Below are positions 11,978-61,032 of a DNA stretch of 64,000 nucleotides, one piece after another. The notes under the pieces are model-generated. The model worked only from the letters and a program-made list of their open reading frames with translations, ran no database searches and was not told the DNA's origin. This DNA comes from an uncultured Bacteroidales bacterium. Lineage in GTDB: Bacteria; Bacteroidota; Bacteroidia; Bacteroidales; FEN-979. The translations under genes were made by a program, and so were the position numbers. Every line of letters starts with the position of its first letter. Position 1 is the first letter of the stretch. Location: contig CAIYUC010000066.1 of the NCBI GenBank assembly GCA_903929315.1, positions 74,986-138,985 on the forward strand, written 5' to 3'.

Positions 11978-12170
11978 CAGCTCGCGCGCGTTTGTAACGC
12001 GTGCGTAATCCTAATCTCTATTTGGCGCGCGTCTCTGACGCGTGACACATTTTTCAGCTCGCGCGCGTTTGTAACGCGTGCGTAATCCTAATTTCTATTT
12101 GGCGCACGTCTCTGACGCGTGACACATTTTTCAGCTCGCGCGCGTTTGTAACGCGTGCGTAATCCTAATC
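11978..12170. repeat. REP tandem array: 77-bp unit x2.5, each unit carrying one A-type and one B-type REP hairpin
   Basis: The unit start cagctcgcgcgcg recurs at 11978, 12055 and 12132. A-type is gcgcgcgtt-tgt-aacgcgtgc and B-type is gcgcgcgtc-tct-gacgcgtg. Confidence 0.9.
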
Positions 12171-15100
12171 TTTCAAACAACGAACCGAGAAAGCATCCGT
12201 CTTAAAAGCCGGATATACCGACACACTTGGATTCGGATCGTTCATTCCGTGTGCCCAGGCTTTCAACGTTCCATGGGCTGTGGAGGACCAAAAGAATGTC
12301 GCGAACCCCTGATAATCCCAATTTTTATTAAGATACCTGGCACCGGAAAGAATAGCATTAAACCCTGAAAATCCTGAATATTTTAACGGACTGCCTGCAA
12401 AGCCATTACTGATATAATTTGCAAACAAGGTATTCCAATCAGCTTCAGTAGGAACGTGCCATCCCGGCGGGCACATTCCCTGGGTTGAAACGGTTTCGTC
12501 ATATTGCATGACTTCATCCCACTGGTAATACGTTTGTTGTCCGCAGTTAGCAACCGCATCATTATAACAATACTTCTCCCAAATGCAGTTATCCCTCTGG
12601 GAGGTATTTCCTGGAATAAGAGTTCCATAATCAAGATTTGCAGCCATCCAGCATTGGGAACCGATCTGGACAGTAGGATAAACCTTGTTATCTCTTACAT
12701 CTGTGATATTGTTTCCACAAGCAAAAACCGGTGCTGCAACAATTGAAATTGCATGTGTGGCACTGGCACTGCAAAGTGCAGCATTGGTGTAAGTATAACT
12801 CAGTATTTTTAAACCTATCCCAGCCGTTGAAGGTGTGAAAATGCCAGTTAAAGAATTTACTCCCGGCCCTGAATAAGTTCCTCCCAATGGTATCCCGCCT
12901 TTAAGTTTTAAGGGCTGTGCACTGTTTGTGGTAATTGTATCGAAGCAAGCTGTAAATGTAACCACTGAAACTAATGTGCCACTCATGATAATGGTATTTG
13001 AGGTTGCAGGATTCCCCGTGACACATGCAAGGTTAGACGTCAGGATGCAAGATACCAGATCGCCGGATGCCGGATTATAGGTATATGTGGGAGAATTTGT
13101 TCCTTTATTGATTCCGTTGACTTTCCATTGATATGCCGGGTTTGCGCCGCCATTCACGGGGGTTGCTGTGAACGTAACTGAATTTCCGGGGCAGAATGGA
13201 TTGGTTGAGGCGGAAATGGTTATCCCTGCCGGGAGGTTTGCATTAACGACCATCGTTATTGAATTCGATGTGGCAGGATTTCCAACCGGACAGGCAATAT
13301 TTGATGTCATCACACAGGATACAACATCTCCGTTGTTTGGTGAATAAGAATAAACTGGATTATTCGGCCCAACATTGATCCCGTTTACTTTCCATTGATA
13401 TGATGGTAATGTGCCTCCATTGGTTGGGGTAGCTGTAAATGTCACAGAGCTTCCCTGACAGAATGGATTAGCGGATGCTGAAATAACAACACTGACTGGA
13501 AGATTAGGATTGACGGTCATGGTAATCGTATTACTTGTCGCTGGATTTCCAGTAGGACATAGGATATTGGAGGTAAGAACACAATTAACGATATCCCCGT
13601 TTACCGGTGGGTAGCTATATATTGGATTATTTGTACCGACAATTAATCCATTTACCTTCCATTGATATACAGGTAAAGTTCCTCCATTAATCGGTAATGC
13701 AGTATAAATAACAATCGTTCCCGAACAGACCGGGTTTGCAGACGATGAAATGGTAACAGTTACAGGATTCAGTGGGTTGACGATCATTGTTACAACATTG
13801 GAAGTAGCCGGGTTCCCACTGGCACATAAGGCGTTTGACGTGAGTATGCAATTAATAACATCTCCATTGACCGGTGTGTAGCTATAAATAGGATTGTTTG
13901 TGCCAACAATTATTCCATTAACTTTCCACTGATAAACCGGGGTTGTGCCGCCATTGACGGGAGTTGCCTGGAACGTCACGGACGTTCCACTACAAACGGG
14001 ATTTGCTGATGGTGAAATTGTAACACTGACTACCACATTGGTATTTTCAACCATCGTAATTGCATTTGATGTTGCAGGATTTCCTATTGGACAAGGAATG
14101 CTTGAATTCAAAACACATGAAACGACATCTCCGTTATTGGGAACAAATGAGTACACCGGACTACTCAGGCCGACATTTCCCCCATTTACTTTCCACTGAT
14201 ATAATGGTGTTGTACCTTCATTCATTGGAATAGCTGTGAAAGTAACAGTTGAATCTTGGCAGAAAGGATTAGATGAGGCACTAATGGAGAGACTGACCGC
14301 AAGGATTGGATTGACAATCATAGTTATGACATTGGATGTATCCGGGTTATTCATGATGCAGCCGGTGATCGAAGAAGTCAATATACACCTTACTAAATCG
14401 TTGTTTAATGGTGTATAAGAAAAAGAGGGAGAACTGGCTCCTATGTTGATCCCATTAACCTGCCACTGATAGAAAGGATTCCCTCCTCCGTTTGATGCTG
14501 TTGAATTAAACGTAACCTGTGTTCCTTCACAAACATTATTTGATGTGGCAGTGATGGTTATATTGACGGCCGGGCTTGGAGTTACTGTGACATTATAATC
14601 AGTGGGTGAGTCTGCAGAACATCCGTTGGCATCCGTAAAATTGACATAAACATGCTGCGTTCCTGCAGCATTCCAGGTAACCGTTACCGTATTATCCGTG
14701 GTTGAGCCCCCTGATGTTATAACTCCTCCTGCTGAAACACTCCACTGGTAATTCGATTTCCCTGAAGCTGTGGAATAGACCTTTCCCGGGCCGGCACAGG
14801 TATTATTGGGGCCGGAAATTACAGGAACAGGGGCTTGGTTTACCGTAACATATAAATATGCTGTAGCACCGGAATCACACTTATTTAATGCTTGTACTCC
14901 GATTGTTCCTGAAATGGCAGAATTGCTGATATCCACTATAATACTTGGAGTTCCTACACCGCTCGTAAGAGTGAAGCCCGCTGGTAATGTCCAGATATAA
15001 TTCACAGCATGGGTAAGTGATGGAATTGAATAACTAATCCCGTTTGAAGGCTTACATACATTGACCGGTCCGGTAATGGGGCCGGCAGTATCGATTGGCC

Positions 15101-21648: not shown

Positions 21649-21897
21649 GAAACCTCAATTTGAATGATAAAACAAAGTTAAGGTAATTCATGAAAGTTCA
21701 AATTGGTCATTTCTTTTTTGAGGTGCCAGGTTGTAAAGACTTAATATGGCGCGCGTGTATGGCGCGCGTGTATGGCGCGCGTCTCCGACGCGTGCCTGAT
21801 CACAATTGGCGCGCGTCTCTGACGCGTGCCCATGACGCATGCCACACCGCAATATGGCGCGCGTCTCTGACGCGTGCCTAACCCATGAGCAATAGAC

Positions 21898-22464
21898 TTA
21901 ATATGAATTCAGCTCAGGCGTTTCAAGTATCACAGGCAAAATATTGCTTAACCCAGCATAGTTCCTTGCAGAACTTAAAAAATAATCTTCAGGATTTTCA
22001 ACAATCATTTCTTTTACCGGATTCTGGTGAATATATTTAAGCTTTTGATAGAAAATTTTTGGACAGGAAATTAGTTCAGGATGATTTCCGTCCTGCCAAA
22101 ATTTATATTTTTCTACTCTCCTTAAGGATTTACCTTTATCTGCAAATCTTAAAAGTATCCAATCTTTGCGACTTTCAGGATTATCCAGGATCTCCTGAAG
22201 AATAACCCGGGCAGTAAATTTTTTAAAATCGCGTAATATTTCCGGTAAAGTAATAGTATTCCCTGCCCTTCCAATCATATGAAGATGGTTACTCATAAGG
22301 CACCATGCATATATTTCTAATCCTTTATGCATTTGGCAATACTTTAATGATTCGACGATTTTTATTTTGTAAACTTTCCTGGTGAAAATATCTATCCAAT
22401 CAACAATTGTTAATGTCACAAAATAGGCTTTATCATTTTCCCTGATTTTGTATTTTTCAGACAT
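21898..22464 (-). CDS. REP-associated tyrosine transposase (RAYT; IS200/IS605-family Y1 transposase-like)
   Basis: MSEKYKIRENDKAYFVTLTIVDWIDIFTR...AWCLMSNHLHMI carries the HUH motif (HLH), and YIHQNPVK carries the catalytic Tyr. The track ORF start at 22572 lies inside a REP copy, so I chose the ATG at 22464. Confidence 0.85.
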   Translation of the reverse strand: MSEKYKIRENDKAYFVTLTIVDWIDIFTRKVYKIKIVESLKYCQMHKGLEIYAWCLMSNHLHMIGRAGNTITLPEILRDFKKFTARVILQEILDNPESRKDWILLRFADKGKSLRRVEKYKFWQDGNHPELISCPKIFYQKLKYIHQNPVKEMIVENPEDYFLSSARNYAGLSNILPVILETPELNSY

Positions 22465-22594
22465 GGTTTGAAATCTTGATTTTACATTAATCAGGAATTT
22501 TTGAAAAGGTGATACTGTTTTCGGGAAAATATTTTTGTTTAAAGCCAGGCACGCGTCGGAGACGCGCGCCATACACTCATGCTATGCAGAGATT

Positions 22595-22682: not shown

Positions 22683-22849
22683 GGCACGCGTCGGAGACGC
22701 GCGCCAAAGTGGGTTTATTTGGTTAAACCGTGCACGCGTCGGAGACGCGCGCCAAAGTGGGTTTATTTGGTTAAACCGTGCACGCGTCGGAGACGCGCGC
22801 CAAAGTGGGTTTATTTGGTAAACCGTGCACGCGTCGGAGACGCGCGCCA
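22683..22849. repeat. REP tandem array: 48-bp unit (23-bp REP + 25-bp invariant spacer) x3.5
   Basis: gcacgcgtcggagacgcgcgcc recurs at 22684, 22732, 22780 and 22827. The spacers aaagtgggtttatttggttaaaccgt are identical except for a single T deletion in the last. Confidence 0.9.
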
Positions 22850-24262: not shown

Positions 24263-24490
24263 GAGAAATTGTTTAATGAGTTCGAGGTAATTACGCACGC
24301 GTTCGGAAACGCGCGCGAGATAAGTCACGCGTCAGAGACGCGCGCCAATTGTGAGAAATTGTTTAATGAGTTCGAGGTAATTACGCACGCGTTCGGAAAC
24401 GCGCGCGAGATAAGTCACGCGTCAGAGACGCGCGCCAATTGTGAGAAATTGTTTAATGAGTTCGAGGTAACTACGCACGCGTTCGGCAAT
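24263..24490. repeat. REP tandem array: 90-bp unit x2.5, each unit with an A-type and a B-type REP (reverse orientation) plus non-REP sequence
   Basis: gagaaattgtttaatgagttcgaggtaa recurs at 24263, 24353 and 24443. Units contain cgcacgcgttcggaaacgcgcgcg and gtcacgcgtcagagacgcgcgcc. Confidence 0.9.
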
Positions 24491-29249: not shown

Positions 29250-29896
29250 ATGCCGGGATCAGACAACCTTTCTTTTTCCGGTTCTTTAATAAAAGATATC
29301 TTACCTGTAAGATACCCAACCCGGAACAAACTATTTTTCTGACCTTTGATGATGGTCCTGTTCCTGAAGTCACGCCGGAAGTATTGAAAATACTTGAGAA
29401 ACGATCAACAAAAGCGACCTTCTTTTGCCTGGGTGAAAATGTGAAAAAATACCCTGAACTGTTTCAGGGGATCTTAACACAAGGGCATTCCATAGGGAAT
29501 CATTCATTTACTCACATGAATGGCTGGAAAACACCAACCGGACAATATGTCGAAAATGTAATGCGCTGTAATGAATATTTTACTACCTCGTTATTTCGCC
29601 CGCCATATGGAAGATTTTCCATCAGCCAATATTATATTTTAAGAAAACATTTCCAATTCATCCTATGGTCCGTCCTCAGTCGTGACTACAAACCGGAGGT
29701 CACTCCGGATCAATGCTTTGATAATGTAATGAAGTATACAACAAGCGGTTCTATCATAGTGTTTCACGACAGTCTGAAAGCAAAGGAAAAAGTTCTTTTT
29801 GCCCTTCCGCGATTCATCGATCTGCTTTTGGAAAAAGGATTCCGGTTTGGAGTAATTCCGTATAATTCTAAAGGACCCCCTCATCAGCAAAGCTGA
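29246..29896 (+). CDS. Polysaccharide deacetylase (NodB-homology domain)
   Basis: Motifs FLTFDDGP and GNHSFTH. The start overlaps the upstream stop (ATGA). Confidence 0.85.
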   Translation: MNAGIRQPFFFRFFNKRYLTCKIPNPEQTIFLTFDDGPVPEVTPEVLKILEKRSTKATFFCLGENVKKYPELFQGILTQGHSIGNHSFTHMNGWKTPTGQYVENVMRCNEYFTTSLFRPPYGRFSISQYYILRKHFQFILWSVLSRDYKPEVTPDQCFDNVMKYTTSGSIIVFHDSLKAKEKVLFALPRFIDLLLEKGFRFGVIPYNSKGPPHQQS

Positions 29897-30566
29897 AATA
29901 CTTGTCATCCCCGATGATCAGGTGATCCAGCACTGCTACATCCAGCATCATCCCCGCATCTTTCAGCTTGGAGGTAATTTTATGATCGGCTTCGCTGGGT
30001 TGCACATTTCCTGACGGGTGATTATGACCAAGAATAATAGATGAAGCATGATGATCAAGGACGATCTTAAATATTTTCTTTGGATCTACCACAGTTCCTG
30101 AAATACCTCCTTCGCTGATACTGCATTTCCGGATGACTTTATTGGCTTTGTTTAACAAGATGATCCAGAATTCTTCATAAGGTTGGTCTCCCATCGTACT
30201 ACGGAAAATTTCATAAGCATCTTTGCTGTTCGTAATTTTTTCTTTGGCGATCACTACTGCTTCATTTCTGCGTTTACCCAGTTCCATGGCGGCAATAATA
30301 ACCACCGCCTTGGCTTTTCCGATCCCTTTGAATTTCTCCAATTCCCTGACACCCAGTTTTGACAATTCAATGAGGTTTTCTTTTACATCTCCAAGAACTT
30401 TCTTTGCCAGATCGACAGCCGTTTCATTTATATTGCCCGAGCCCAGCAGGATCGCCAGGAGTTCAGCATCACTCAATGCATTTTTCCCTTTCAGAAGAAG
30501 TTTCTCTCTTGGCCTGTCATCCTCCGCCCAATTTTTAATGGTTAACCGGTTTATATAACTCTCCAT
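29868..30566 (-). CDS. radC: RadC-family JAB-domain protein
   Basis: EDDRPREKL and the JAMM motif HNHPSGNVQPSEAD. I chose the start at MESYINRL. Confidence 0.9.
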   Translation of the reverse strand: MESYINRLTIKNWAEDDRPREKLLLKGKNALSDAELLAILLGSGNINETAVDLAKKVLGDVKENLIELSKLGVRELEKFKGIGKAKAVVIIAAMELGKRRNEAVVIAKEKITNSKDAYEIFRSTMGDQPYEEFWIILLNKANKVIRKCSISEGGISGTVVDPKKIFKIVLDHHASSIILGHNHPSGNVQPSEADHKITSKLKDAGMMLDVAVLDHLIIGDDKYFSFADEGVL

Positions 30567-30700
30567 ATTTTTTCTCATTAATCGGAGAAAAATAAAAAGG
30601 TAATACCTTTGCAATGGATTATTTTAAAAATTATTACTTTTGAATGAACGTTCTCCTTCCTTCAGCTAGGGGTAGATTTATTAGTAAATATTTTTTTAAA

Positions 30701-40283: not shown

Positions 40284-41417
40284 ATGCCGGAACTTTCTGT
40301 TGTCCCGAACAATGGCTTTCTTTTACTTTTTATTTTATTTATTCTCACCTTCGTTTTTCTGAATCTTTATTATTGGGTCATCTTTTACAGGCTCGCAATT
40401 CATAAAGAAAAAGCGGAAAAAATAAACGAGCAAGGCGTATCGGTGGTCATTTGCGCCCGTGATGAATACTCCCGTCTGAAGGAGAACCTTCCCCTGATCC
40501 TTGAACAGAATTATTCGAATTATGAGGTCCTGGTAGTGAATCATGCTTCTGATGATGACAGTTCGTTTCTGCTTGCCAGGATGGCCGAACATTACCCGCA
40601 GCTCAAGATTATTGAGATAAAGGAAAATCTGAATTTTTTCACAGGAAAAAAATTTCCTCTTTCCATCGGGATCAAATCTGCAAAAAATGATATTATATTG
40701 CTTACAGATGCCGATTGCAAGCCTGCCGGGAAGAACTGGATATCGATGATGCAACAGTTTTGCGTCGATCCGGCTGAAATTGTCCTTGGATATGGTTCCT
40801 ACGAACATAAAAAAGGGCTGCTGAATAAACTCATCCGTTTCGATACGGCAATTATTGCTGTTCAATACCTCTCCTGCGCATTAGCAGGAATTCCATACAT
40901 GGGGGTTGGCAGGAATATCGAATACAGAAAATCTTTGTTTTATCAAACCAAGGGGTTTACCTCTCATTACCGGATTGACTCCGGAGATGACGATTTGTTC
41001 ATAAACAGTGTCGCAAACAATAAGAATACCAGGATTATCCTCGACCCGGAAAGCTTCACTTTTTCCGAACCAAAAACGAAATTCAATGACTGGATCCTTC
41101 AGAAGAAAAGGCATTTATCGACAGGTCGTTTTTACAGGGTGCAACACAAGGTATTGCTGGGGAGCTATGCACTCAGCCAATTCCTCTTTTACTTGTTTTT
41201 CGTCCTTTTACTTGTATTCAATCATGCGGTTCCACTGGTTCTGACGATATTTTTTGTGAAATTGTTCTGCCAGATGTTCGTTTTCGGGAAATGTATGGTA
41301 AGGCTTCAGGAAAAAAAGATCTGGATATATATTCCATTTTTTGAAATTTTTTTCCTACTTTTAAATACTTGGATTTCTGTTTCAAATTTATTTTCTAAAC
41401 CGAATAAATGGAAGTAA
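40284..41417 (+). CDS. Family-2 glycosyltransferase with membrane-spanning N- and C-termini
   Basis: VSVVICARDE, LLTDADC (DxD) and the GT-A pattern QKKRH. Confidence 0.85.
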   Translation: MPELSVVPNNGFLLLFILFILTFVFLNLYYWVIFYRLAIHKEKAEKINEQGVSVVICARDEYSRLKENLPLILEQNYSNYEVLVVNHASDDDSSFLLARMAEHYPQLKIIEIKENLNFFTGKKFPLSIGIKSAKNDIILLTDADCKPAGKNWISMMQQFCVDPAEIVLGYGSYEHKKGLLNKLIRFDTAIIAVQYLSCALAGIPYMGVGRNIEYRKSLFYQTKGFTSHYRIDSGDDDLFINSVANNKNTRIILDPESFTFSEPKTKFNDWILQKKRHLSTGRFYRVQHKVLLGSYALSQFLFYLFFVLLLVFNHAVPLVLTIFFVKLFCQMFVFGKCMVRLQEKKIWIYIPFFEIFFLLLNTWISVSNLFSKPNKWK

Positions 41418-42016
41418 CCGGACATCTGACACCTAAAGCCCAGCGCGATTATCTGCTTGTTCAACAGGCGGCAAACAGCGGTGACCGGAAGGCCTATACC
41501 GAGCTCCTTAATAATTACAGGGATTCACTTTACTTCCTGCTGTTAAAGATGACCAATAACCCGGTTGATGCCGAAGATCTTACCATTGAAGCCTTTGGAA
41601 AAGCGTTTAAAAACCTTGATCAATATTCACCGGAATATGCTTTCAGCACCTGGTTGTTCAAAATCGCAACAAATAATTGCATCGATTATATGCGAAAAAA
41701 CCGCCGGATGAATTTTACCAGTGGTATCGATAATGAAGGGAATGAAACAGATAATTATCCCGCCAATTTACCCTCCCAGACCCTTGATCCTGAGGAAAAG
41801 GTCATTGAAAAACAGAAGATAAAACTGATGCGGGAGATAGTGGAGAAATTAAAACCCCATTACAGGATGCTGATAGAAATGCGGTATTTCAAAGAGCTTT
41901 CTTACGAAGAAATCGCAACCCAGCTCGATTTACCTTTGGGTACAGTCAAAGCCCAACTTTTCAGGGCCCGTGAACTGCTTTACCATATCCTGAAAAATTC
42001 ACAGGAAAAAATTTAG
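41408..42016 (+). CDS. ECF-type sigma-70 family RNA polymerase sigma factor
   Basis: Region 2 (DAEDLTIEAF...FSTWLFKIATNNCIDYMRK) and region 4 (LSYEEIATQLDLPLGTVKAQLFRAR). There is a 10-nt overlap with the GT2 gene. Confidence 0.9.
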   Translation: MEVTGHLTPKAQRDYLLVQQAANSGDRKAYTELLNNYRDSLYFLLLKMTNNPVDAEDLTIEAFGKAFKNLDQYSPEYAFSTWLFKIATNNCIDYMRKNRRMNFTSGIDNEGNETDNYPANLPSQTLDPEEKVIEKQKIKLMREIVEKLKPHYRMLIEMRYFKELSYEEIATQLDLPLGTVKAQLFRARELLYHILKNSQEKI

Positions 42017-44138: not shown

Positions 44139-46253
44139 ATGAAAAAATATTTCATTTTTATTTCTATCCTTGCACTTCTTATTGGAAATGGTTGCAAGCA
44201 AAAAATCACCGTGAAATACCCGGCAACAAAAAAGGTCGACACTGTCAATAATTATTTTGGAACGAAAATCGCAGATCCTTACCGCTGGTTGGAAAATGAC
44301 ACTTCCAAAGCCACTGCGGAATGGGTCAAAGCGGAAAACGCCGTCACCTTTGATTATCTTTCAAAGATCCCTTTCAGGGAAAAGATCCGCGAAAGGCTTA
44401 CGAAAATCTGGAACTACCCGAAATACGGCGTCCCTTTTAAAGAAGGGCCTTATTATTTCTTCTTTAAAAACAACGGTTTGCAGAATCAGTCGGTGCTTTA
44501 TTACCGAAAAGGGCTGGAAGACACTGCAAATGTCCTGTTGGATCCCAATAAACTCGCTACTGACGGCACCCTTGCCCTTACCTCGGTGAAAGTTTCCCAT
44601 GACGGGAAATACCTTGCTTTCAGCATTGCGAAAAGCGGTTCCGACTGGAATGAGATCTTCGTGATGGAGATTGAATCGGGGAAAATCCTGCCGGACAATT
44701 TAAAATGGGTCAAATTCTCGAGGATTTCCTGGAAAGGGGACGGGTTTTATTACAGCCGGTACCCGGAACCTGCACCGGATGAAGAGCTCGTGACTAAAAA
44801 CGAATTCCAGAAAGTCTATTTCCACAAAGTTGGTGACGACCAGAAGAATGATCTGTTGGTCTATGAAAACAAGAAATTCCCTTTACGCAACTTTAGCGCC
44901 TCGGTGACGGAAGACGAAAGATTCCTGCTGGTGTATGAATCCGAATCGACCAGTGGCAATGCTTTATTTTATAAAGACCTGAAGAAAAGCACCATGCCTT
45001 TCAAGCTTCTTGCGGAGGGATTTGAATTTGAATATAGCGTGGTCGATAATATTGAAGACAAGCTGCTTGTCGAAACCAACTACAAAGCTCCCAAAAAGAT
45101 GCTCGTATTGATGGATCCGGAAAACCCCGGTCCCGATCACTGGAAAACAATGATCCCGGAACGGGAAGATGTACTTGAATCGGTCGAAGTTGCACGCGAC
45201 AGGATTATTTCACTCTACATGCAGAATGCCATAAACAAGGCTTATGTTTACGATCTGAAGGGACAATTTCTCCAGGAATTAAATCTCCCCGGCCTGGGTA
45301 CGCTCAGCGGCTTCAGTGGTAAGAAGGGCGAAAATATTGCCTTTTACGGTTTTACAACCTTCCGTTTCCCGACTACTGTATTCAAATACGAAGTGTCAAC
45401 CAATCAATCAACTGTCTATACGCGGCCGGAGATCGATTTTGATCCCGATCAATACGAAGCAAAGCAGGTCACGTACAGCAGTAAAGACAAAACCAGCATA
45501 ACCATGTTCCTGGTCTATAAAAAAGGGTTGAAGCTCGATGGTCAAAATCCCACTTTATTATATGGTTATGGGGGGTTCAATATCAGCATGACGCCGAATT
45601 TCAGCATCAGCCGTACCTTGTTTCTAGCTAATGGCGGTGTTTATGCTGTCCCGAACCTGCGCGGGGGAGGAGAATATGGTGAAAGTTGGCATAAAGCCGG
45701 TACCAAGGAAAGAAAGCAAAATGTCTTTGATGATTTCATTGCTGCGGCTGAGTACCTGATCAGTGAAAAATACACATCTCCCGAACACCTCGCCATCCTT
45801 GGCGGTTCCAATGGTGGTTTACTGGTAGGCGCCTGCATGACCCAGCGGCCGGATCTTTTCAAAGTCTGCATTCCCCAGGTGGGCGTGATGGATATGCTCC
45901 GTTACCATAAGTTCACCATCGGCTGGGCATGGAAATCCGACTATGGATCAAGTGAGACGAAGGAAGGATTTGATTGGCTGATCAAATATTCTCCTTTACA
46001 TAACCTCAAAAAAGGAGTAAGCTATCCTGCCACGATGGCATTCACAGCCGATCATGATGACCGCGTGGTTCCCGCACATACATTTAAATTTATGGCCACC
46101 CTGCAGGAAGATAATGCCGGGCCGAATCCAATGATCGTCAGGATCGAGACCAAAGCAGGACATGGCGCCGGTACCCCTACCTCAAAACTGATCGAGGAAA
46201 CTACCGATCTCTGGTCATTTGTGTTCTATAACCTGGGGATGAAGGTGAAATAG
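44139..46253 (+). CDS. Prolyl oligopeptidase (S9A) lipoprotein
   Basis: DPYRWLE at the N-terminus; catalytic GGSNGGLL, DDRV and AGHG. Confidence 0.95.
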   Translation: MKKYFIFISILALLIGNGCKQKITVKYPATKKVDTVNNYFGTKIADPYRWLENDTSKATAEWVKAENAVTFDYLSKIPFREKIRERLTKIWNYPKYGVPFKEGPYYFFFKNNGLQNQSVLYYRKGLEDTANVLLDPNKLATDGTLALTSVKVSHDGKYLAFSIAKSGSDWNEIFVMEIESGKILPDNLKWVKFSRISWKGDGFYYSRYPEPAPDEELVTKNEFQKVYFHKVGDDQKNDLLVYENKKFPLRNFSASVTEDERFLLVYESESTSGNALFYKDLKKSTMPFKLLAEGFEFEYSVVDNIEDKLLVETNYKAPKKMLVLMDPENPGPDHWKTMIPEREDVLESVEVARDRIISLYMQNAINKAYVYDLKGQFLQELNLPGLGTLSGFSGKKGENIAFYGFTTFRFPTTVFKYEVSTNQSTVYTRPEIDFDPDQYEAKQVTYSSKDKTSITMFLVYKKGLKLDGQNPTLLYGYGGFNISMTPNFSISRTLFLANGGVYAVPNLRGGGEYGESWHKAGTKERKQNVFDDFIAAAEYLISEKYTSPEHLAILGGSNGGLLVGACMTQRPDLFKVCIPQVGVMDMLRYHKFTIGWAWKSDYGSSETKEGFDWLIKYSPLHNLKKGVSYPATMAFTADHDDRVVPAHTFKFMATLQEDNAGPNPMIVRIETKAGHGAGTPTSKLIEETTDLWSFVFYNLGMKVK

Positions 46254-46295
46254 ATGCCGGATGCCGGATGCCAGATGTCAGATGTCAGATACTTG
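46254..46295 (+). repeat. Heptad tandem array ATnCCnG (ATGCCGG x2, ATGCCAG, ATGTCAG x2, degenerate), starting on the base after the TAG stop
   Basis: The direct read is tag|atgccggatgccggatgccagatgtcagatgtcagatacttg. Confidence 0.9.
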
Positions 46296-46385
46296 AAGCT
46301 TGAGGCCCGAAGACTGAAACCTGAAAAAAAGTTATTAACAATCGTATTACCTTTCCAATAATACCCGATTAATGGGTAATCCCAG

Positions 46386-46970
46386 ATGATTATGATCTAT
46401 TCGGATGAAAATCTCCTGAAAGGACTCAGGGAACACAAAACGGATTGCATAAAGTTCATGTACAAGGATTATTTTCCCCTGGTAAAATCAATAGTTACCA
46501 AAAATTCCGGGAATTATCAGGATGTGGAAGATGTTTTCCAGGATGGATTGATCGTCCTCTACCAAAAGACAGATTCAGGATCCCTCTGTCTGAACTGCAC
46601 CCTGAAAACATTTTTCTACTCGGTCTGCTGGAATATATGGATGCAACGCCTGGACCGGAAGTGGAGATTGCTATACCAGGATGAAATCCTGAATGAACCT
46701 GCTGCCGAATACGAAAACAATGACAAAGATTATGATGAAGAGAAACTGGAAAAATTGAGGTTATACCACTTGCATTTTCTAAAGTTACCGGAGGAATGTC
46801 AGAAATTGCTTAATTATTTTGTAAATAAAACTCCTTTAAAAGTTATTGCCCGGATCATGGGCTTTAAAGATGAAAAATATGCAAAAACACGAAAATATAT
46901 GTGTAAGAATATGTTACGAAAGAGAATAATGAATGATCCAAGAAGCAAAAGTTTTGTTTTTTATGAATAA
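46386..46970 (+). CDS. Sigma-70 family (ECF-like) sigma factor
   Basis: Region 2-like DVEDVFQDGLIVLYQK and region 4-like CQKLLNYFVNKTPLKVIARIMGFKDEKYAKTRKYMCKNMLRKRI. Confidence 0.75.
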   Translation: MIMIYSDENLLKGLREHKTDCIKFMYKDYFPLVKSIVTKNSGNYQDVEDVFQDGLIVLYQKTDSGSLCLNCTLKTFFYSVCWNIWMQRLDRKWRLLYQDEILNEPAAEYENNDKDYDEEKLEKLRLYHLHFLKLPEECQKLLNYFVNKTPLKVIARIMGFKDEKYAKTRKYMCKNMLRKRIMNDPRSKSFVFYE

Positions 46971-47778
46971 AAATGAAAAAATATACGAATGGATTGACCG
47001 TTTCAATGATAATGAATTGAACGGAGAGGAATTAAAAGAGTTCCTGAAGCTTTTAAAAAATGAGCCAGCTCTCAGAGCTGAAGTAAGATTGGACAAAGAT
47101 CTCAATGAAATGTTGCAGGATGAGGGTCTTCTATCTTTAAGAAAAAAGATCATTGAATTAAGAAAAAACCGTGAAGATAGAGGGATAGGCGAGAAGATAG
47201 TTCTTCTTGCGGCATCCATATTGGTCATCCTGGTTTTATCTGTTATTCTTTATCTTGTCATTGGTTTGAAAACCGGGAATAATAAGATACTCCAAACAAA
47301 TAACAGCCCTGCCAACGGATTACCCATTAATAAAAATTCTTCTCCTGAATTGAATAACAGGAAAAACAATCCGGGAAAACAACAATTGATGAATGACACG
47401 CTGTCAAAGAACAGACCCGGGATTTCCAGTAATCAAAATCAATCTTTAATAGCTGCTAACTACAAACCATTTCCTCCATTTGAAAGCCTGATCGGAACCC
47501 ATATACGATCGGAGTATTTCAAATTGATTGAACCTTTTCCGGGTTCTCATTTTAAAAATAGCAGTACCATCCTTTTTTCCTGGGAAACAGATATTTCTCA
47601 TCCCCTTACTATGGTGATCATGGACAATCAGGGGCAACTCATTTTTGATTCGCATCCGGTTCATGATAAATCACTGAAAGTGCCTTCCGGACGGTTGAAA
47701 AATGGATTATTTTATTTTAAGATTCTAAAGGAAGATGAGATGGTGTTTTTTGGTAAATTTACCATTGAAATTAAGTAA
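46963..47778 (+). CDS. Single-pass membrane protein in the anti-sigma position
   Basis: I chose MNKNEKIYEWIDRF as the start, which overlaps the sigma gene by 8 nt. One TM helix (IVLLAASILVILVLSVILYLVIGL) is followed by an approximately 180-aa extracytoplasmic part. No known anti-sigma motif was seen. Confidence 0.6.
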   Translation: MNKNEKIYEWIDRFNDNELNGEELKEFLKLLKNEPALRAEVRLDKDLNEMLQDEGLLSLRKKIIELRKNREDRGIGEKIVLLAASILVILVLSVILYLVIGLKTGNNKILQTNNSPANGLPINKNSSPELNNRKNNPGKQQLMNDTLSKNRPGISSNQNQSLIAANYKPFPPFESLIGTHIRSEYFKLIEPFPGSHFKNSSTILFSWETDISHPLTMVIMDNQGQLIFDSHPVHDKSLKVPSGRLKNGLFYFKILKEDEMVFFGKFTIEIK

Positions 47779-47781
47779 TTA

Positions 47782-50619
47782 TTGAAAAAACCAGAAATCA
47801 TTTATTCATGGCTTAAAAATCTTCGGACCTGCTTTATTTACCTGGGTCTCATTTCAGGCAACTTCACGATTTTATATTCACAAAATCCTTTTGTTTTTGC
47901 TGGTGAAAACTGCTTCACTGAGGGTAAAAGATTATACCATAGAGGGGTATATGATAGTGCTGCAATAAAGCTCAAATGTTTTTTAGATCTTTCCCCTGAA
48001 CGAAAACTGCTTGTTGATCCATTGGCGAGTGGTATCAGGATTTCAAAACAAGAGGTGGAACAAATCCTGTCTGCCTGTTTAAAATTGTCGGTTTGTTTTA
48101 TAATCCTTAAAGATTTTGATAGCGGATTTATCTACCTGGATCAAGGGCTTGTAATTTTTAAACAGGCTGGCTTTCAGAATGAGAAGTTATTAACCGACTT
48201 CTATTTTCAGAAGGGCAACTGCTATTTTTTAAGGAAGGATTACAGCAATGCTATTCATTTTTACCAGCAAGCACTCTCTCACATGCCTATGGGGGATCCG
48301 TTAAAGGTATCGGTTTATATGAATTTGGGTGATATCTATTTTGTAAAGGAGGACGCTGATAATGCCATTGATCATTATAGAAAGGCATTGATACTTCTCA
48401 AAGCTTCAGCGAAAGGCAGCTTGGAAAAATCTGCTGATATTCTGGCTAATCTTGGTGCAGCATATTTTGAGAAAAACGATAATGAAAAAGCGATATTTTA
48501 TTTTTTAAAAGCCAAAAAAATTTATGAACTCAACCACACGAATGATACACTCAGCATTGGCAGACTCTTTGTGAACATAGGCAGCGTATATTTAAAACGC
48601 AATGTGATAAATAAATCTTTGAACTATTATAGGTCAGCAATCAGATATATAAGAACAAAGAATAAGTTTTATTCCCCGGAACTATTATTACTCTATAAAG
48701 ATTTTGCATCCGCATATTCGAAATCTGGCAGGGAAGATTCTTGTTTTTTTTATCTTTCTGCAGCGATGGATCTTTTGACACATCAGAAACAAGATGAAAA
48801 TGATGAAGCAGCCGATCTGTATCGGTTAATGGGCAATTGTTCCAAATCACAAAACCATTGGCAGGATGCTTTGAATTATTATAACAAGTCATTATCAACA
48901 TTGATCCCGGAATATAGGGATGGAGAAGAGAATTTCCGGAGGATATTGACTAACCCTGTCCGGTTGCTGGAATTCTGCAGGATATTAACTGATAGGGCAC
49001 AGGCAATCTACCAATACGGATCGGTTCATCCTGAAGAAGTTGATTTTATCAAACGATCTTTTTCGGATTATTTAACCTCCCTTAAACTGTTGAATGTGAT
49101 TTCAAAAGGTTTTGGACGCGAAGGCTCTAAACTGATCTTTAATGAGACTTCAAAAGAATTTTATTCAAGGGTTTTGAATATTGGGTTTCAGGACATGGAT
49201 GCCTTGGATGAACAGGAGAAGGAAAAGTTGTTCGGGCTTTCTGAAAAAAGTCGTACGAATGTTCTTTTGGAAACAATGAATGAAAAAACGGCAAAAAGAG
49301 TTTCCGGTATTCCTGAAATTTTGCTGAAAAAAGATAATGCAATACAGTATGAGCTCACTCGTTTAGGCAGTAAATATTTTTCCGACCCTCCACTGGTCGC
49401 CAAAGATGAGCAAAAAACATTATTGAATGAAGTAATGCGGATTTCAGACCTCTATCAGGAACATGATTCTCTGATTAAGGAGTTTGAATTGAACAACCCC
49501 AAATACTTTGATATGAAATACGGGGATTCCCATGTTTCATTAGCTGAAATCCGGCAGAAACTTGATCCGGATGAATCCCTGATCGAATATTTTACAGGCG
49601 ATTCCACTTTATTTATTTTTCTTGTTACAAGAGATTGTGTTATTGTGAAAAAAGTCAGGATTAATGATGACTTTCAAGCCAGTGTAAAAAAATACAATAA
49701 ACTCCTGGCAAGCGCTGATATTCAGGATTATTTCAGGATCAGTAAAATGCTATACCAGTTCTTACTTGCTCCTATCGGGAGCTACCTGAAGAATGACAAG
49801 AAATTGATCATTATTCCGGATGAAATTCTTGCATTGGTTCCTTTTGAAACGTTGGTCAGCGACACTTTCACAACCAGCGGGGTCACTAATAACCATTATC
49901 TTGTAAATGATTTCGAGATCTGTTATCACTATTCGGCGACATTATGGAGGAAAAGTTTTGATGCTGCCGGGGATTACCAACCGGGTGACAATAAGCATTT
50001 TAATTTCATAGGTTATTCACCCGGATTTCAGTTAAAGAATAATAACCTTCCCTATGCGGATGATGAGATCATAAAAGTAACCCGTATCCTGAAGGATCAT
50101 GGAGTGGAAGCGGTTTCAGTACTTCATGACCAGGCTACTGAAGAACATTTTAAAAGATATACCTCTTCCTATTCCTGGATCCATCTTGCTACACATAGTA
50201 AGGTTGACTTTAACTATCCTGAAAGATCCGGTTTGCTTTTTACCGAAGATCCCGGATCTAAAAAGGATCAAACCTCCGGGAACGATGTTTTATATCTGGA
50301 TGAGATATATAATTTAGGTCTGCATGCTGACCTGGTGGTATTAAGTGCGTGTGCCACGGGTACCGGGAAAATCATCAAATCGGAAGGCGCAATGGCTTTG
50401 ACCCGTGGTTTTCTTTATGCCGGAGCGTCAAACATACTGTATTCCCTTTGGAATATCACCGACAAGCATACACGGGACTTCATGATCGGCTTTTATTCTG
50501 AACTGGTTTCAGGGAAGAGCTATTCAGCGGCTCTCCGGGCCGAGAAGCTGAAGATGATCTCCCGGCCGGAAACTTCTCTTCCCACCATCTGGGCGCCGTA
50601 TGTGTTGATGGGGAGATGA
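47782..50619 (+). CDS. Exported TPR-repeat / CHAT-domain (caspase-like) protein
   Basis: Multiple TPR units (NAIHFYQQAL, AIDHYRKAL, KAIFYFLKA). The C-terminal CHAT domain has a catalytic-type His (WIHLATHSKVD) and Cys (LVVLSACATGTG). The start is a TTG per the track. Confidence 0.85.
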   Translation: MKKPEIIYSWLKNLRTCFIYLGLISGNFTILYSQNPFVFAGENCFTEGKRLYHRGVYDSAAIKLKCFLDLSPERKLLVDPLASGIRISKQEVEQILSACLKLSVCFIILKDFDSGFIYLDQGLVIFKQAGFQNEKLLTDFYFQKGNCYFLRKDYSNAIHFYQQALSHMPMGDPLKVSVYMNLGDIYFVKEDADNAIDHYRKALILLKASAKGSLEKSADILANLGAAYFEKNDNEKAIFYFLKAKKIYELNHTNDTLSIGRLFVNIGSVYLKRNVINKSLNYYRSAIRYIRTKNKFYSPELLLLYKDFASAYSKSGREDSCFFYLSAAMDLLTHQKQDENDEAADLYRLMGNCSKSQNHWQDALNYYNKSLSTLIPEYRDGEENFRRILTNPVRLLEFCRILTDRAQAIYQYGSVHPEEVDFIKRSFSDYLTSLKLLNVISKGFGREGSKLIFNETSKEFYSRVLNIGFQDMDALDEQEKEKLFGLSEKSRTNVLLETMNEKTAKRVSGIPEILLKKDNAIQYELTRLGSKYFSDPPLVAKDEQKTLLNEVMRISDLYQEHDSLIKEFELNNPKYFDMKYGDSHVSLAEIRQKLDPDESLIEYFTGDSTLFIFLVTRDCVIVKKVRINDDFQASVKKYNKLLASADIQDYFRISKMLYQFLLAPIGSYLKNDKKLIIIPDEILALVPFETLVSDTFTTSGVTNNHYLVNDFEICYHYSATLWRKSFDAAGDYQPGDNKHFNFIGYSPGFQLKNNNLPYADDEIIKVTRILKDHGVEAVSVLHDQATEEHFKRYTSSYSWIHLATHSKVDFNYPERSGLLFTEDPGSKKDQTSGNDVLYLDEIYNLGLHADLVVLSACATGTGKIIKSEGAMALTRGFLYAGASNILYSLWNITDKHTRDFMIGFYSELVSGKSYSAALRAEKLKMISRPETSLPTIWAPYVLMGR

Positions 50620-50667
50620 TTCCGGATACCGGATGCCAGATACCAGATACCAGATGTCAGATACATC
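50619..50667 (+). repeat. Heptad tandem array ATnCCnG (6 units plus a degenerate one) sharing its first base with the TGA stop
   Basis: The read is tg|attccggataccggatgccagataccagataccagatgtcagatacatc. Confidence 0.9.
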
Positions 50668-50679
50668 ATACGTCACGCG

Positions 50680-57988: not shown

Positions 57989-58084
57989 ACGATTCTTCTG
58001 ATAAGCAACAGACAAACTTACATAAAAATCAGCTTTATCCGAATACCGGATAAAAAACTCTTAAAGGGTTGCAAGGGAAGACAG

Positions 58085-58133
58085 ATTCCAGATGCCAGAT
58101 CCCGGATACCAGATGCCGGATGCCGGATGCCGG
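58085..58133 (+). repeat. Heptad tandem array ATnCCnG (7 units) ending 1 nt from the stop codon of the minus-strand 58135 gene
   Basis: The read is attccagatgccagatcccggataccagatgccggatgccggatgccgg|a|tta. Confidence 0.9.
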
Positions 58134-58134
58134 A

Positions 58135-61032
58135 TTAATAATTTATTGAGTAAAGGAATTCAAACCCCCAGGAATTGGTATCGGGGAAATAAATGCTTCG
58201 AACACCAAATTCGAAAGGGATCAGGAATCGCAAAATATGAAGATCTGCCATAAGTTCTAACCCTGCTGACCTGTAAATGCTCAGGTTCTTATCCAGGGTG
58301 CCTTCTGCATAATCGTAAAAAAGATTCAGCTTGAATCTCTTGAAATAGAGTAAGGAACCGAGGCTGAGATCAGGATAAAACAGAGGAAACTTGTAATTCA
58401 GGCTGAGACTGTACAGATCTTTGCTTTCCTGACCGGTGAATCCTCTTGGATAATTTATAATATCAGAGAACTGGTAAAAAGAAAAAGGATTGATCTTACT
58501 TTCCTGGATCCCGCCATAGAACCGGAAACTATGATGATTGAAGAACCCGGGGAAAAAAAGATTAGTGGCAACACTAATAATGGAACCCATGGAATTTCCC
58601 TGAAATGGTGTATCCCTGAATTGAAAATCAATGGTCTGACCCCATTTTGGAAACATATCCTTCGGATTTGACCGGATATAGTTAGAAGCATACAACCGGT
58701 AATTCATTGTTTGGATCAGTCCTTTCGTATAAAATGAAGGTGTTCCGGAAGTATGGATCACGTCGAGGAGTGAGGTCCCTATGGAAGGAGTTACAAACCT
58801 GTAATATTTACCATGTGTAAAATTCCAGGGGATACTGATAGTACCGGTAAAATTCATCTCCTCCCATTTGAAAGGTATAGCTTCAGATGATTTCCGGATG
58901 ATATAATATGAAGATCTTCCACCATAACTAAAAGTAAGGTCAAAGACCGGATACAAACCCTGGTAGCTCAGATCAGCAAAGACTTTCCCGGTTCCTTCGT
59001 TGATATTGTAATCATACCCGGCGGTGGCAATAGTAGTGCTCAGTACATTCTGGGAGAGAAATGAAACTCCCGGGTGAAGCATCAGGTTATTAATATCGAA
59101 TGAAGCAGGAGCCCAACTATGAATGTTGAAAAGAGTTAACCCTTTATGGTATTTTTTTGATTTAAAAATCGTCCCTCTGATTGAATCTTTTGCAAGATCA
59201 TAATCAGTATTTTGAATCATCTTGTAAATGTTATAATGCAACACACTATCCTGAATGTTAATCTTTTCTTGCAGAGCCAGTGAGTTGTATAATTTTATAG
59301 AATTATCCTTTACATTCGCGAGAGCGATCCATTTAGTCGTATCGAGCCTTGTTTCAGCAATCATTGACCCGTCAGAACTGTATTCGGAATAGATCATCCG
59401 TTGATGATCTGCAGTGAAATTTGGATCCCGGGCTCCAAACCTTGAGGATGTAACCTGATAGATTTGCCGGGTCAGGGTATCGACAGCATAAATATTTTCA
59501 ATTCCGGAATAGTCGCCGGTATACAGGATGTAATGTTTATAAAAAAAAGAAGGACCGGAAATTTTGTTATAGTCATAGGGAACATATTGGGTAAACTTTC
59601 CTGTCGTGAGATTGAGCAGTCCTACGCATTTTCCTTTTTCATTTAACAGAGTCATGGTGATTTTGGTATTATTATCATTCCATGAAGGAGTGATCGCCAA
59701 TGCTTTATTCCCAAAATTAAACGTTTTTAAAAGTTTTCCTGTTTTGATATCAAGGATAACAAGGGAGGATTCATTATTTAATGTCACATGAATGGCTGCT
59801 ACTTTTGTTCCATCCGGGGAGATCCTTGCTGCAAAATAGCGTGATCGTTTAGTCAGGTTCCGGATTTTTTTAGTATGTATGTCATACACTTTAATGATTG
59901 TATAATCCCTGTTATTCCATCGTATATCAGGCGCTGCTTCGACCCATACCAATAAGTTGCCGGCTACAGATACCGATTGGTTTAAATACAACCCGGGAGT
60001 AAATAATTTTTTCTCCCGTCCGTGATTATTTACCAGAACAAAGCGATCAATATCGTCCATGGATTTTTTTTCAGCAATAAAAGTTGAGTCATTTAATTGG
60101 CAAGGGAGCTGGTATAGTGTAAAGTTCTTTGGATCCGGCTTCGTGACCAGCCTGTGATCAGTGTAAATTATCCCGGTTGCCTGTTGCGACCATAAACGAT
60201 CCAGTTCTGAAAGAGTTTGACTGTATAATTTAACTTTGGGTAGTCCTGTGATCTTTTTGATGCCGCTGGAAAAAGGTATTACTATAAAGGGGTATTTGGC
60301 TACACGATCCAGTGTGGAATTCCACAATCCGGCGCTGTACATTTCTCTTGTTTTTGCGACAAGGAAATACCCTAATGAATAATAATCGGGAACGAAAGTT
60401 TTATACGAACCGAGAACAGCTTTGTCATAGGAATATTGTCCTTTTTCCAAAAGCTGTGCCCGCAAAGTGCTTTCAAAACCGGCAAGTCGACCCCTGCCTG
60501 AAGCAGAAAGCGCTGTCTCTATGGAAACTGCATCCCCTTCAAGGAACCAACGGGGAATATATAGACCCAATACGGTGCCCGTTACCTGCTCTCCGAATAA
60601 GTAATACAATATCCGGGTAAACCCTCTGTTCATCTTACTGGTCTGTACCGCATGCCTATACTCATGGATCGCCAGCTGTTCAAGCCATTCTTCTCCATAT
60701 ATATCCTGCGGAGGACACGGATACATTTCAATTCTTTTCGGAGCCCAAACAGTAACGCCATTCGAAACAGAGGATTGCTGGTGAATGACAATGGGAATTT
60801 TCGGGACTTTTGCAGAGAGTGTGTGGGTGTCACTCCGGACGACCATCTCAAGGATATTACTGAGATACTGCGAATTTTTTTCGAAAGAGGCAGGATAAAT
60901 AAGTTTGAATCTTTTGGTATTGATTTGCCTCCAATGAATCGAAGCAGGATCTGTACCTGTCGTGAAATATTGAGCCGGACTGCTTTTGCAAAGTATTATA
61001 AACAGGAATGGAATAATTAGAAGTTGTTTCAT
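58135..61032 (-). CDS. Exported multidomain protein: HExxH metalloprotease-like N-domain, PD40/TolB-like beta-propeller repeats, beta-barrel-like C-terminus
   Basis: Signal peptide MKQLLIIPFLFIILCKSSPAQ, then AIHEYRHAV, ARISPDGTKVAA and DPNFTADHQRMIYSEY. The C-terminus ends ...FEFLYSINY. Confidence 0.65.
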   Translation of the reverse strand: MKQLLIIPFLFIILCKSSPAQYFTTGTDPASIHWRQINTKRFKLIYPASFEKNSQYLSNILEMVVRSDTHTLSAKVPKIPIVIHQQSSVSNGVTVWAPKRIEMYPCPPQDIYGEEWLEQLAIHEYRHAVQTSKMNRGFTRILYYLFGEQVTGTVLGLYIPRWFLEGDAVSIETALSASGRGRLAGFESTLRAQLLEKGQYSYDKAVLGSYKTFVPDYYSLGYFLVAKTREMYSAGLWNSTLDRVAKYPFIVIPFSSGIKKITGLPKVKLYSQTLSELDRLWSQQATGIIYTDHRLVTKPDPKNFTLYQLPCQLNDSTFIAEKKSMDDIDRFVLVNNHGREKKLFTPGLYLNQSVSVAGNLLVWVEAAPDIRWNNRDYTIIKVYDIHTKKIRNLTKRSRYFAARISPDGTKVAAIHVTLNNESSLVILDIKTGKLLKTFNFGNKALAITPSWNDNNTKITMTLLNEKGKCVGLLNLTTGKFTQYVPYDYNKISGPSFFYKHYILYTGDYSGIENIYAVDTLTRQIYQVTSSRFGARDPNFTADHQRMIYSEYSSDGSMIAETRLDTTKWIALANVKDNSIKLYNSLALQEKINIQDSVLHYNIYKMIQNTDYDLAKDSIRGTIFKSKKYHKGLTLFNIHSWAPASFDINNLMLHPGVSFLSQNVLSTTIATAGYDYNINEGTGKVFADLSYQGLYPVFDLTFSYGGRSSYYIIRKSSEAIPFKWEEMNFTGTISIPWNFTHGKYYRFVTPSIGTSLLDVIHTSGTPSFYTKGLIQTMNYRLYASNYIRSNPKDMFPKWGQTIDFQFRDTPFQGNSMGSIISVATNLFFPGFFNHHSFRFYGGIQESKINPFSFYQFSDIINYPRGFTGQESKDLYSLSLNYKFPLFYPDLSLGSLLYFKRFKLNLFYDYAEGTLDKNLSIYRSAGLELMADLHILRFLIPFEFGVRSIYFPDTNSWGFEFLYSINY

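Follow-up and report, generated by a model that had tools for sequence, protein, structure and literature searches.

A split Bacteroidota variant of a sigma factor system linked to a TPR-CHAT protease

We analysed a stretch of 64,000 nucleotides, hereafter the window, from an uncultured Bacteroidales bacterium (assembly GCA_903929315.1, contig CAIYUC010000066.1, positions 74,986 to 138,985 of the forward strand). It carries three tightly packed genes which encode a sigma factor, a membrane protein that we call the middle protein (MID), and a protein composed of tetratricopeptide repeats (TPR) and a CHAT domain (TPR-CHAT). We see in this locus a split version, found in Bacteroidota, of the sigma systems tied to TPR-CHAT proteases; the sigma, MID and CHAT genes very probably make up one functional module. 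We describe the conserved neighbourhood of the three genes, a shared promoter motif and an intact catalytic dyad in the CHAT domain. How the three proteins would work together is proposed more tentatively in the Discussion.

Results

A compact module with a divergent sigma factor

The three genes follow one another on one strand (Table 1). At the sigma/MID junction, ATGAATAA (in longer context TTTTATGAATAA), the ATG of MID overlaps the sigma stop by 8 nt, and a 3-nt gap separates MID from the TPR-CHAT gene (TAA-tta-TTG). An earlier reading of this DNA, made from the sequence alone (the sequence-only reading), had described the 8-nt overlap and the 3-nt gap, and both are borne out by the coordinates of the open reading frames (ORFs) and the junction sequences. 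It had further named an extracytoplasmic function (ECF)-type sigma factor, a single-pass membrane protein in the anti-sigma position and a 945-aa TPR-CHAT protein with the caspase-type His and Cys. These assignments hold up: the first by matches to Sigma70_r2 and TIGR02937, the second by a single hydrophobic segment and the overlap with the sigma gene, the third by Pfam and the translated HLATHS and LSACATG.

The sigma factor matches Pfam Sigma70_r2 at 1.2e-7 and scores above the curated threshold of NCBIfam TIGR02937 (sigma70-ECF; 47.8 bits vs a cutoff of 42.9). Pfam region 4 gave no match in the window protein, and PF08281 was found in just one of its homologues; this region is atypical and contains YAKTRKYxCKNMLRK. 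By sequence, the protein is a divergent ECF-type factor of the sigma-70 family. It is well conserved, with more than 50% identity across 120 listed homologues, and an exhaustive profile search returned 420 clusters at 50% identity at E<=1e-30 and 4456 at E<=1e-10. C138 and C173 are invariant in all 89 sigma homologues, and the sigma factor itself may be sensitive to redox conditions or metals. C138 lies at the start of region 4 and C173 within the YxKTRKYxCK helix; C71 and C81 are also frequent.

The linkage is conserved across Bacteroidota

We used the sigma alignment to fetch 80 loci, one per GTDB species, and scored the window proteins against all ORFs there. All 80 are from Bacteroidota (Bacteroidales metagenome-assembled genomes, Prolixibacteraceae, Draconibacterium and Lentimicrobiaceae). 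The three-gene arrangement that the sequence-only reading had described in one genome is conserved: the CHAT gene lies beside the sigma/MID pair in 62 of the 66 species-level loci with enough flank to judge. Four arrangements were found in all, types A to D (A, B, L205 and L210, the last being type D), each with its own context.

Type A (26 species) has both the sigma-MID-CHAT order and the flanking synteny of the window, where housekeeping genes for urocanase and an S9 peptidase lie upstream and those for RidA and LptD downstream, convergent. Its CHAT protein comes in a long form with TPR and CHAT (837-951 aa) and a short form with CHAT alone (391-436 aa). In type B, seen in 36 mostly Lentimicrobiaceae-like species, sigma-MID is retained, and the TPR-CHAT gene (1105-1158 aa) is divergent, about 1.7 kb upstream. 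There it sits on the opposite strand behind a gene for a protein of about 410 aa, in a genomic context unrelated to that of type A. L205 and L210 carry more distant sigma factors of the same family (phmmer 1e-20). The order of sigma, MID-like and CHAT genes in L205 is that of the window, in a new context, while sigma-MID and CHAT are convergent in L210.

Since the type A flanks are syntenic as well, the adjacency might be inherited synteny without functional meaning. The linkage is not simply inherited, because it survives four rearrangements; it is kept in three other contexts that lack those flanks, and the promoter motif described below is shared. The present data contradict inherited synteny as the explanation, and we consider it highly improbable. 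The linkage between sigma and CHAT genes is far beyond chance and more than inherited synteny, yet it is not universal.

We also looked from the CHAT side, at eight distant TPR-CHAT homologues. Two, those of L205 and L210, had a sigma gene nearby, three stood beside type IX secretion system (T9SS) cargo genes without a sigma gene, and three had neither. The neighbours of the sigma-less genes encode an S8 peptidase with Por_Secre_tail, a 2403-aa multi-domain cargo protein and a CHU_C protein (L206 4299-8943; L209 5001-13132; L211 5001-10955). These three loci hint at a wider functional tie between CHAT proteins and T9SS cargo in Bacteroidota.

A putative promoter motif shared by sigma and CHAT operons

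Alignment of the regions upstream of the sigma genes gave a bipartite motif, GTATTACCTTT-N11-(C/G)GAT(T/A)A, which ends 10-20 nt before the start codon, in types A and B alike. The window holds exactly 3 copies of the motif vs 0.01 expected, and the one before the sigma gene is a putative autoregulatory promoter. A position weight matrix (PWM) scan of 1.15 Mb of locus DNA found 132 matches. In the 80 species 79 of them lie before sigma genes; about 45 belong to type B, where they are found on the other strand ahead of the ~410-aa gene upstream of TPR-CHAT, and a handful lie elsewhere. The ~410-aa protein of type B, which contains CarboxypepD_reg/SdrD_B and Por_Secre_tail, belongs to the T9SS cargo; tblastn found no homologue of it in the window.

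In L210 the sigma gene and the operon of a 282-aa lipoprotein and TPR-CHAT have TGGTTACAAT-N14-TTACTAAT in common, which looks like a version of the motif that co-diverged with the diverged sigma factor. The L210 regions bearing it are at about 8575-9961 (-) and 4018-7790 (+). Judged by the motif, CHAT is predicted always to be co-regulated with sigma, either inside the sigma operon or in a motif-bearing operon of its own, because the motif (diverged in type D) precedes each CHAT operon that is separate from that of sigma.

We rejected the motif as a general housekeeping promoter, since within the 1.15 Mb it is found almost exclusively ahead of sigma genes and of the CHAT/cargo operon. When the module was scanned for generic sigma-70 promoters and terminators, the counts did not differ from those in shuffled sequence. 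The motif is probably the sigma factor's own promoter.

Several type B genomes (L039, L041, L044, L045, L047, L049, L063) have two tandem sigma-MID pairs, each with its own motif; in L049 these are at 7992-9321 and 9653-10982. An additional motif-driven MID-like TPR gene without sigma was seen in L032, L041 and L052.

A predicted scattered regulon

The other two copies in the window precede genes for a RadC/JAB protein and for a transposase associated with repetitive extragenic palindromes (REP), which are predicted members of the regulon. Copies precede radC in L013 and L129 as well, and genes of the REP-associated transposase family in L006 and L124. For the window and other contigs the form of the motif was noted as GTATYACCTTT-N11-YGATTAATG. 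Outside the window it was located at 11491-11525 in L013, at 4694-4728 in L006 and in metagenome contigs L084-L163.

A metagenome scan with the type A form gave at least 120 stretches, and downstream genes were obtained from 80 loci. This gene list is a sample from many organisms and not a defined regulon. Among the matches listed were sigma genes (at least about 12), genes of the four-helix-bundle family TIGR02436 (at least about 15), GxxExxY (at least about 8), SSB (at least 2), topoisomerase I (at least 2) and the ~411-aa T9SS cargo (at least 2). RecJ-like DHH/DHHA1, DUF559, RelE/HigB-type toxins, RhuM and several unknowns were also listed. Judged by the motif, genes for DNA handling and selfish cassettes would make up a scattered regulon, which appears to be new. 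A literature search on the GxxExxY and four-helix-bundle genes gave nothing useful.

The TPR-CHAT protein is a predicted extracytoplasmic caspase-like protease

The TPR-CHAT protein of the window matches CHAT (PF12770) at 6e-53 over aa 654-945, and several TPR families of Pfam over aa 140-373. In its AlphaFold2 (AF2) model (pLDDT 82, pTM 0.71) a long superhelix of TPRs leads into an alpha/beta CHAT domain. The layout based on the model is a signal-peptide-like N-terminus (aa 1 to ~33), the superhelix (~36-590) and CHAT (~598-945). In Foldseek the best matches among solved structures were Csx29/Craspase (8eey_B, E 6.6e-14), DdvA (8rot, E 3.2e-12) and separase. The only solved CHAT detected by sequence was 8rot_B, again DdvA (E 2e-4).

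The sequence-only reading had proposed His and Cys in HLATHS and LSACATG as catalytic residues, and these are conserved in the orthologues. The sole aligned sequence without the Cys ends at a contig end before that position, so the dyad is present in all 61 CHAT homologues that reach it; both residues are also invariant in an alignment of 36 sequences of distant homologues. With the CHAT fold and the His-Cys dyad, the protein is a predicted caspase-like (clan CD) protease. Searched against the anti-phage defence models of PADLOC, the CHAT protein had a generic TPR match only, and sigma, MID, RadC and RayT had none; we rejected membership of a known defence system.

The N-terminus of the window protein resembles a signal peptide and ends in ...LYS/Q. 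In type A the N-termini are hydrophobic, with ...Y/A-S/A-Q at their ends, which we take to fit the signal-peptidase-I "Q-rule" of Bacteroidetes; those of type B are of the lipoprotein type (L-x-x-C). From the N-termini of the window protein and its orthologues, the TPR-CHAT proteins are predicted to be extracytoplasmic. The short form consists of a signal peptide and a CHAT domain with intact dyad, without the TPR region. It is carried by Prolixibacteraceae/Draconibacterium-like loci (L013, L018, L019, L021-L025, L027, L028, L034, L035 and L056).

The middle protein has the layout of a membrane anti-sigma factor

MID has one strongly hydrophobic segment, aa 79-97, with a K/R-rich stretch ahead of it. 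In its AF2 model, helices span aa 3-15, 21-33 and 35 onwards, the last running into the transmembrane helix. Residues 103-171 are disordered, and an eight-strand beta-sandwich at aa 180-270 is predicted with confidence. A homologous N-terminus and one transmembrane segment (near residues 80-110) follow 87 of the 89 sigma genes, usually overlapping the sigma stop. The N-terminal pattern is [I/W]-I-[D/E]-R-[F/Y]-x3-E-L-x3-E-x3-F-x3-L-x2-N-x2-L-x2-E, and MID contains no conserved Cys/His zinc motif. Hallmarks of a class I anti-sigma factor are present, namely a gene directly 3' of the sigma gene and coupled to it, and a helical N-domain followed by one transmembrane segment. The layout of MID is that of a class I membrane anti-sigma factor, and it is position, coupling and topology that lead us to the term.

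The periplasmic domain differs by type. Neither Pfam nor NCBIfam has a family for the window MID, which gave no match at E<=1 to models of the T9SS C-terminal domain (CTD). Matches appeared among the 25 type A homologues: PF18962 Por_Secre_tail in 13 (best 2.3e-4, below the curated threshold), CHU_C in 3 and DUF3244 in 4. When the sandwich was aligned by hhalign with the CTDs of the type B T9SS cargo, the probability was 88% (E 3e-6), and Foldseek returned Ig/FN3-like folds, among them the T9SS substrate CTD 8glk_D. The type A MID ectodomain resembles a T9SS C-terminal sorting domain, which appears to be new. Where linker and sandwich meet, 41 of 56 type A homologues and 0 of 58 other MIDs have a short motif, PxFExLIG, whose distance to the C-terminus is fixed at about 100 aa. 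Its residues P171 and E174 do not vary in the full-length MID alignment (A2). This motif is a candidate docking or cleavage site. It is missing in two loci without CHAT, L031 and L033. Loss of the periplasmic domain along with CHAT was rejected, since the beta-sandwich persists in the CHAT-less L016, L031 and L033.

Such a domain could mean that the T9SS engages the CTD-like fold of MID and that the sigma factor reports the state of the T9SS, in the manner of FlgM or PorA; the CHAT protein would then cut the engaged tether or act on co-regulated cargo. With its length of about 70 aa, the linker might extend as far as the outer membrane. The Por_Secre_tail, CHU_C and hhalign results, the CTD-like domain retained without CHAT and the T9SS cargo gene under the same motif (type B and metagenome contigs) all speak for such secretion-coupled control. 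A precedent is found in Porphyromonas gingivalis, where the T9SS CTD protein PorA is reported to signal to PorXY-SigP (PMC7712824, PMC12152298). That system likewise ties a T9SS CTD protein to ECF sigma signalling in a member of the Bacteroidota. Unlike PorA, which is a free cargo acting on a two-component sensor, the CTD-like fold here ends an anti-sigma-like protein, and the sigma family differs. However, the window MID lies below every Pfam CTD threshold, Ig-like sandwiches are common and the Foldseek matches generic. The MIDs of types B, C and D are TPR-like and not CTD-like, and nothing ties the predicted regulon (radC, ssb, topA) to secretion. We give secretion-coupled control a small chance.

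Comparison with known systems

The closest fused relative is DdvA of Myxococcus xanthus, an anti-sigma factor for which there is a cryo-EM structure (PMC11506125). In one chain DdvA joins a zinc-bound three-helix domain in the cytoplasm, a single transmembrane helix, a flexible linker and TPR-CHAT in the periplasm (PMC11506125). DdvA without TPR-CHAT becomes a substrate of RseP, which the bulky TPR-CHAT sterically blocks (PMC11506125). Its authors propose that a signal induces CHAT autoproteolysis of the linker (a site-1 role), followed by RseP; cleavage was not demonstrated there (PMC11506125). The H862A and C907A mutants equalled the wild type under the conditions assayed, and the paper reports DdvA-like fusions from Myxococcota and, beyond that phylum, from one Comamonas only (PMC11506125).

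The module resembles DdvA in parts and is not a member of the fused DdvA-type family. Like DdvS/DdvA, it has an ECF-type sigma factor, a three-helix cytoplasmic N-domain, a single transmembrane helix, a flexible periplasmic linker and an extracytoplasmic TPR-CHAT with a His-Cys dyad. In contrast to DdvA, the protease is a separate, presumably exported protein (two genes, 46963-47778 and 47782-50619) and not fused to the anti-sigma factor. MID lacks the zinc-binding (CHCC) motif and has a T9SS-CTD-like domain, the host phylum is Bacteroidota, and the predicted regulon is not a CRISPR/CBASS island, with no PADLOC match. Since DdvA fuses parts which are here split over two proteins, a Rosetta-stone argument can be made that MID and TPR-CHAT work together.

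Another possibility is that the TPR-CHAT protein is a non-catalytic co-anti-sigma factor or sensor resembling RseB. Bound to MID through its TPRs, it would keep a conventional site-1 protease away from MID until displaced by a ligand. The steric block of RseP and the catalytic mutants without phenotype would fit (PMC11506125), as would the large TPR region here (aa ~36-590). However, the short forms of 391-436 aa have lost this whole region and kept the CHAT domain and the dyad, and His and Cys are present in every homologue that reaches them, which argues for catalysis. A non-catalytic role has, in our judgement, a slim chance.

A second known system is Craspase of type III-E CRISPR, in which the TPR-CHAT protein Csx29 acts with Cas7-11 and cuts Csx30, which inhibits the ECF-like CASP-sigma (PMC10028731). 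The module shares with it a TPR-CHAT protease, an ECF-like sigma factor and a presumed inhibitor, the cutting of which would free the sigma factor, and Csx29 is the best structural match to our model. Unlike Craspase, which is cytoplasmic, RNA-guided and CRISPR-linked, the protease here is predicted to be exported, cas genes are absent and a membrane protein would be the inhibitor.

In canonical regulated intramembrane proteolysis of anti-sigma factors, RseA is processed by DegS and RseP, and RsiW by PrsW and RasP. The module has a single-pass anti-sigma-like protein and a co-transcribed sigma factor in common with these systems, and a periplasmic site-1 cut is proposed as the trigger. It differs in the candidate site-1 enzyme, which would be a clan-CD caspase-like cysteine protease instead of a PDZ serine protease and is encoded in the sigma operon or co-regulated with it.

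The sequence-only reading had held that this combination was not functionally characterised. For the split three-gene Bacteroidota form this stands, as we found no description of it in the literature, and CHAT goes unmentioned in the main text of an ECF reclassification paper. For the wider combination it does not, because the related fused DdvA and Csx29/Csx30 are already known (PMC11506125, PMC10028731).

Other features of the window

Seven-nucleotide tandem repeats (AGATGCC / GATACCA / CAGATGC, 5-8 copies), related to one another, are located at 46252-46290, 50618-50671 and 58082-58135. Two arrays flank the three-gene module directly, upstream and downstream, and the third is 7.5 kb off. 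In the window, as in related loci, many other intergenic regions contain short tandem repeats with different units. Around the transposase gene at 21898-22464 there are GC-rich repeat arrays, with units such as GCACGCGTCGGAGACGCGCGCC, at 21745-21782, 22684-22849, 24263-24486 and 11977-12171; together with the REP-associated transposase they form a REPtron-like arrangement. A second ECF sigma gene, a canonical one with r2 and r4_2 in its orthologues, lies 4.4 kb upstream of the module at 41408-42016 (+). No anti-sigma gene adjoins it; the urocanase gene follows directly, and type A genomes keep these two genes together in synteny.

Table 1. Coordinates of the module, of its protein features and of the promoter motif in the window.
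Feature	Position	Strand	Remarks
Sigma gene	46386..46970	+	194 aa, ORF list
MID gene	46963..47778	+	271 aa from ATG at 46963; three-helix N-domain (cytoplasmic) aa 1 to ~70, beta-sandwich aa 180-271
TPR-CHAT gene	47782..50619	+	945 aa, TTG start
Putative sigma-dependent (autoregulatory) promoter, GTATTACCTTT-N11-CGATTAATG	46344..46374	+	Ends 11 nt before sigma ATG
Motif copy 2	30576..30606	-	9 nt upstream of RadC/JAB gene 29868-30566 (-), ATG 30566
Motif copy 3	22485..22515	-	20 nt upstream of REP-associated tyrosine transposase gene 21898-22464 (-), ATG 22464
PPFESLIG (P-x-F/L/Y-E-x-L/M-I/V-G)	47473..47496	+	Conserved short motif at linker/beta-sandwich junction
MID beta-sandwich, T9SS CTD-like	47500..47775	+	Pfam in homologues, hhalign, Foldseek
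Putative catalytic His805 codon (HLATHS)	50194..50196	+	His in 62/62 aligned sequences; HLATHS at 50182-50199
Putative catalytic Cys857 codon (LSACATG)	50350..50352	+	Cys in 61/62 aligned; LSACATG at 50341-50361

Discussion

As the reading with the best support, we propose that the divergent ECF-type sigma factor would be held at the membrane by the co-translated MID, through its three-helix cytoplasmic N-terminus. The periplasmic part of MID would comprise a disordered linker of about 70 aa, the conserved PxFExLIG junction and the T9SS-CTD-like beta-sandwich, and the exported TPR-CHAT protease would meet it there. On an envelope or extracellular signal, CHAT would clip periplasmic MID as a site-1 protease. 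Intramembrane cleavage could come next and free the sigma factor, which would transcribe its own operon from GTATTACCTTT-N11-CGATTAATG and the scattered regulon. The interpretation offered by the sequence-only reading is partly supported; its mechanistic idea, that a protease would act on what an anti-sigma factor exposes outside the cytoplasm, is plausible. We infer the binding of sigma by MID, the cleavage of MID by CHAT, the site-2 protease that would follow and the nature of the signal. For the full chain, with CHAT as the site-1 protease on the periplasmic tether of MID, our belief falls slightly short of our doubt.

Several observations weigh against this chain. Searches of anti-sigma families in Pfam and NCBIfam found nothing significant for the window MID, 10 diverse N-termini or 25 members of the A2 alignment. 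There were only weak matches among the 25 homologues (DUF3379 in 7, best 0.009, and DUF4880 in one). Profile searches of the Protein Data Bank (PDB) with the full-length (A2) and N-terminal (A4) alignments found no anti-sigma factor, only spurious RTF1 and HigB-2. We rejected MID as a member, by sequence, of a known anti-sigma family, since neither the family nor the PDB profile searches gave anything significant. The sigma and MID genes stand without a CHAT gene in five loci (L016, L030, L031, L033 and L054; CstA comes after MID in L016). CHAT is dispensable for the sigma/MID pair, because these five loci keep the pair without it. In type B the CHAT gene sits in a motif-driven operon of its own with a secreted cargo protein, as would be expected of an output gene, and MID has a TPR domain in place of the CTD-like domain. 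Some TPR-CHAT homologues adjoin T9SS cargo genes with no sigma gene near, and the wild-type behaviour of the DdvA mutants points the same way.

Much of this would be expected if the TPR-CHAT protein were an output of the regulon and not its regulator, which is the main rival explanation. The sigma/MID pair would sense something else and induce an exported caspase-like protease, by which proteins of the envelope, T9SS cargo or foreign proteins would be processed or degraded. The CHAT genes of types B and D have an operon of their own, with its own copy of the sigma motif, and follow a T9SS cargo gene or a lipoprotein gene within it. The five CHAT-less loci and the distant TPR-CHAT genes beside T9SS-CTD cargo genes agree with this, and the ~411-aa cargo family carries the motif elsewhere too. 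However, the CHAT gene stays linked to one sigma family through four rearrangements, a protease of the same architecture is joined to an anti-sigma factor in DdvA (PMC11506125), and in type A MID is the only CTD-bearing protein of the module. We regard a role as mere output as unlikely, though it deserves serious attention.

Further reaching is the possibility that MID ends in a genuine T9SS sorting domain on a periplasm-spanning tether which is cut by the co-regulated protease. The activity of the sigma factor would then be tied to what happens at the secretion machinery or at the cell surface, and the sigma factor would run a LexA-independent programme of DNA-handling and selfish-element genes. 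This programme would include ssb, topA, recJ-like genes, radC, REP-associated transposases, GxxExxY and four-helix-bundle cassettes, and toxins. We find this improbable. If true, Bacteroidales would possess a response that is triggered at the envelope and is akin to DNA stress, competence or defence.

Returning to the proposal of CHAT as site-1 protease, CHAT proteases tied to sigma control have so far been known from two systems, a CRISPR-guided cytoplasmic enzyme and a fused myxobacterial anti-sigma factor. In the latter both the signal and the cleavage are undemonstrated. The widespread split version separates the presumed protease from the presumed substrate, and this would make the step of a caspase as site-1 protease directly testable: one gene can be altered and the other protein followed. 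The recognisable promoter motif provides a ready reporter and a predicted regulon. Natural variants, such as the forms without TPR, the loci without CHAT, the lipoprotein forms and the MIDs with either a CTD-like or a TPR domain, serve as built-in comparisons. If the CTD-like domain of MID is functional, it would be a new kind of link from type IX secretion to the release of a sigma factor. The module may show how caspase-like proteases control gene expression from outside the cell.

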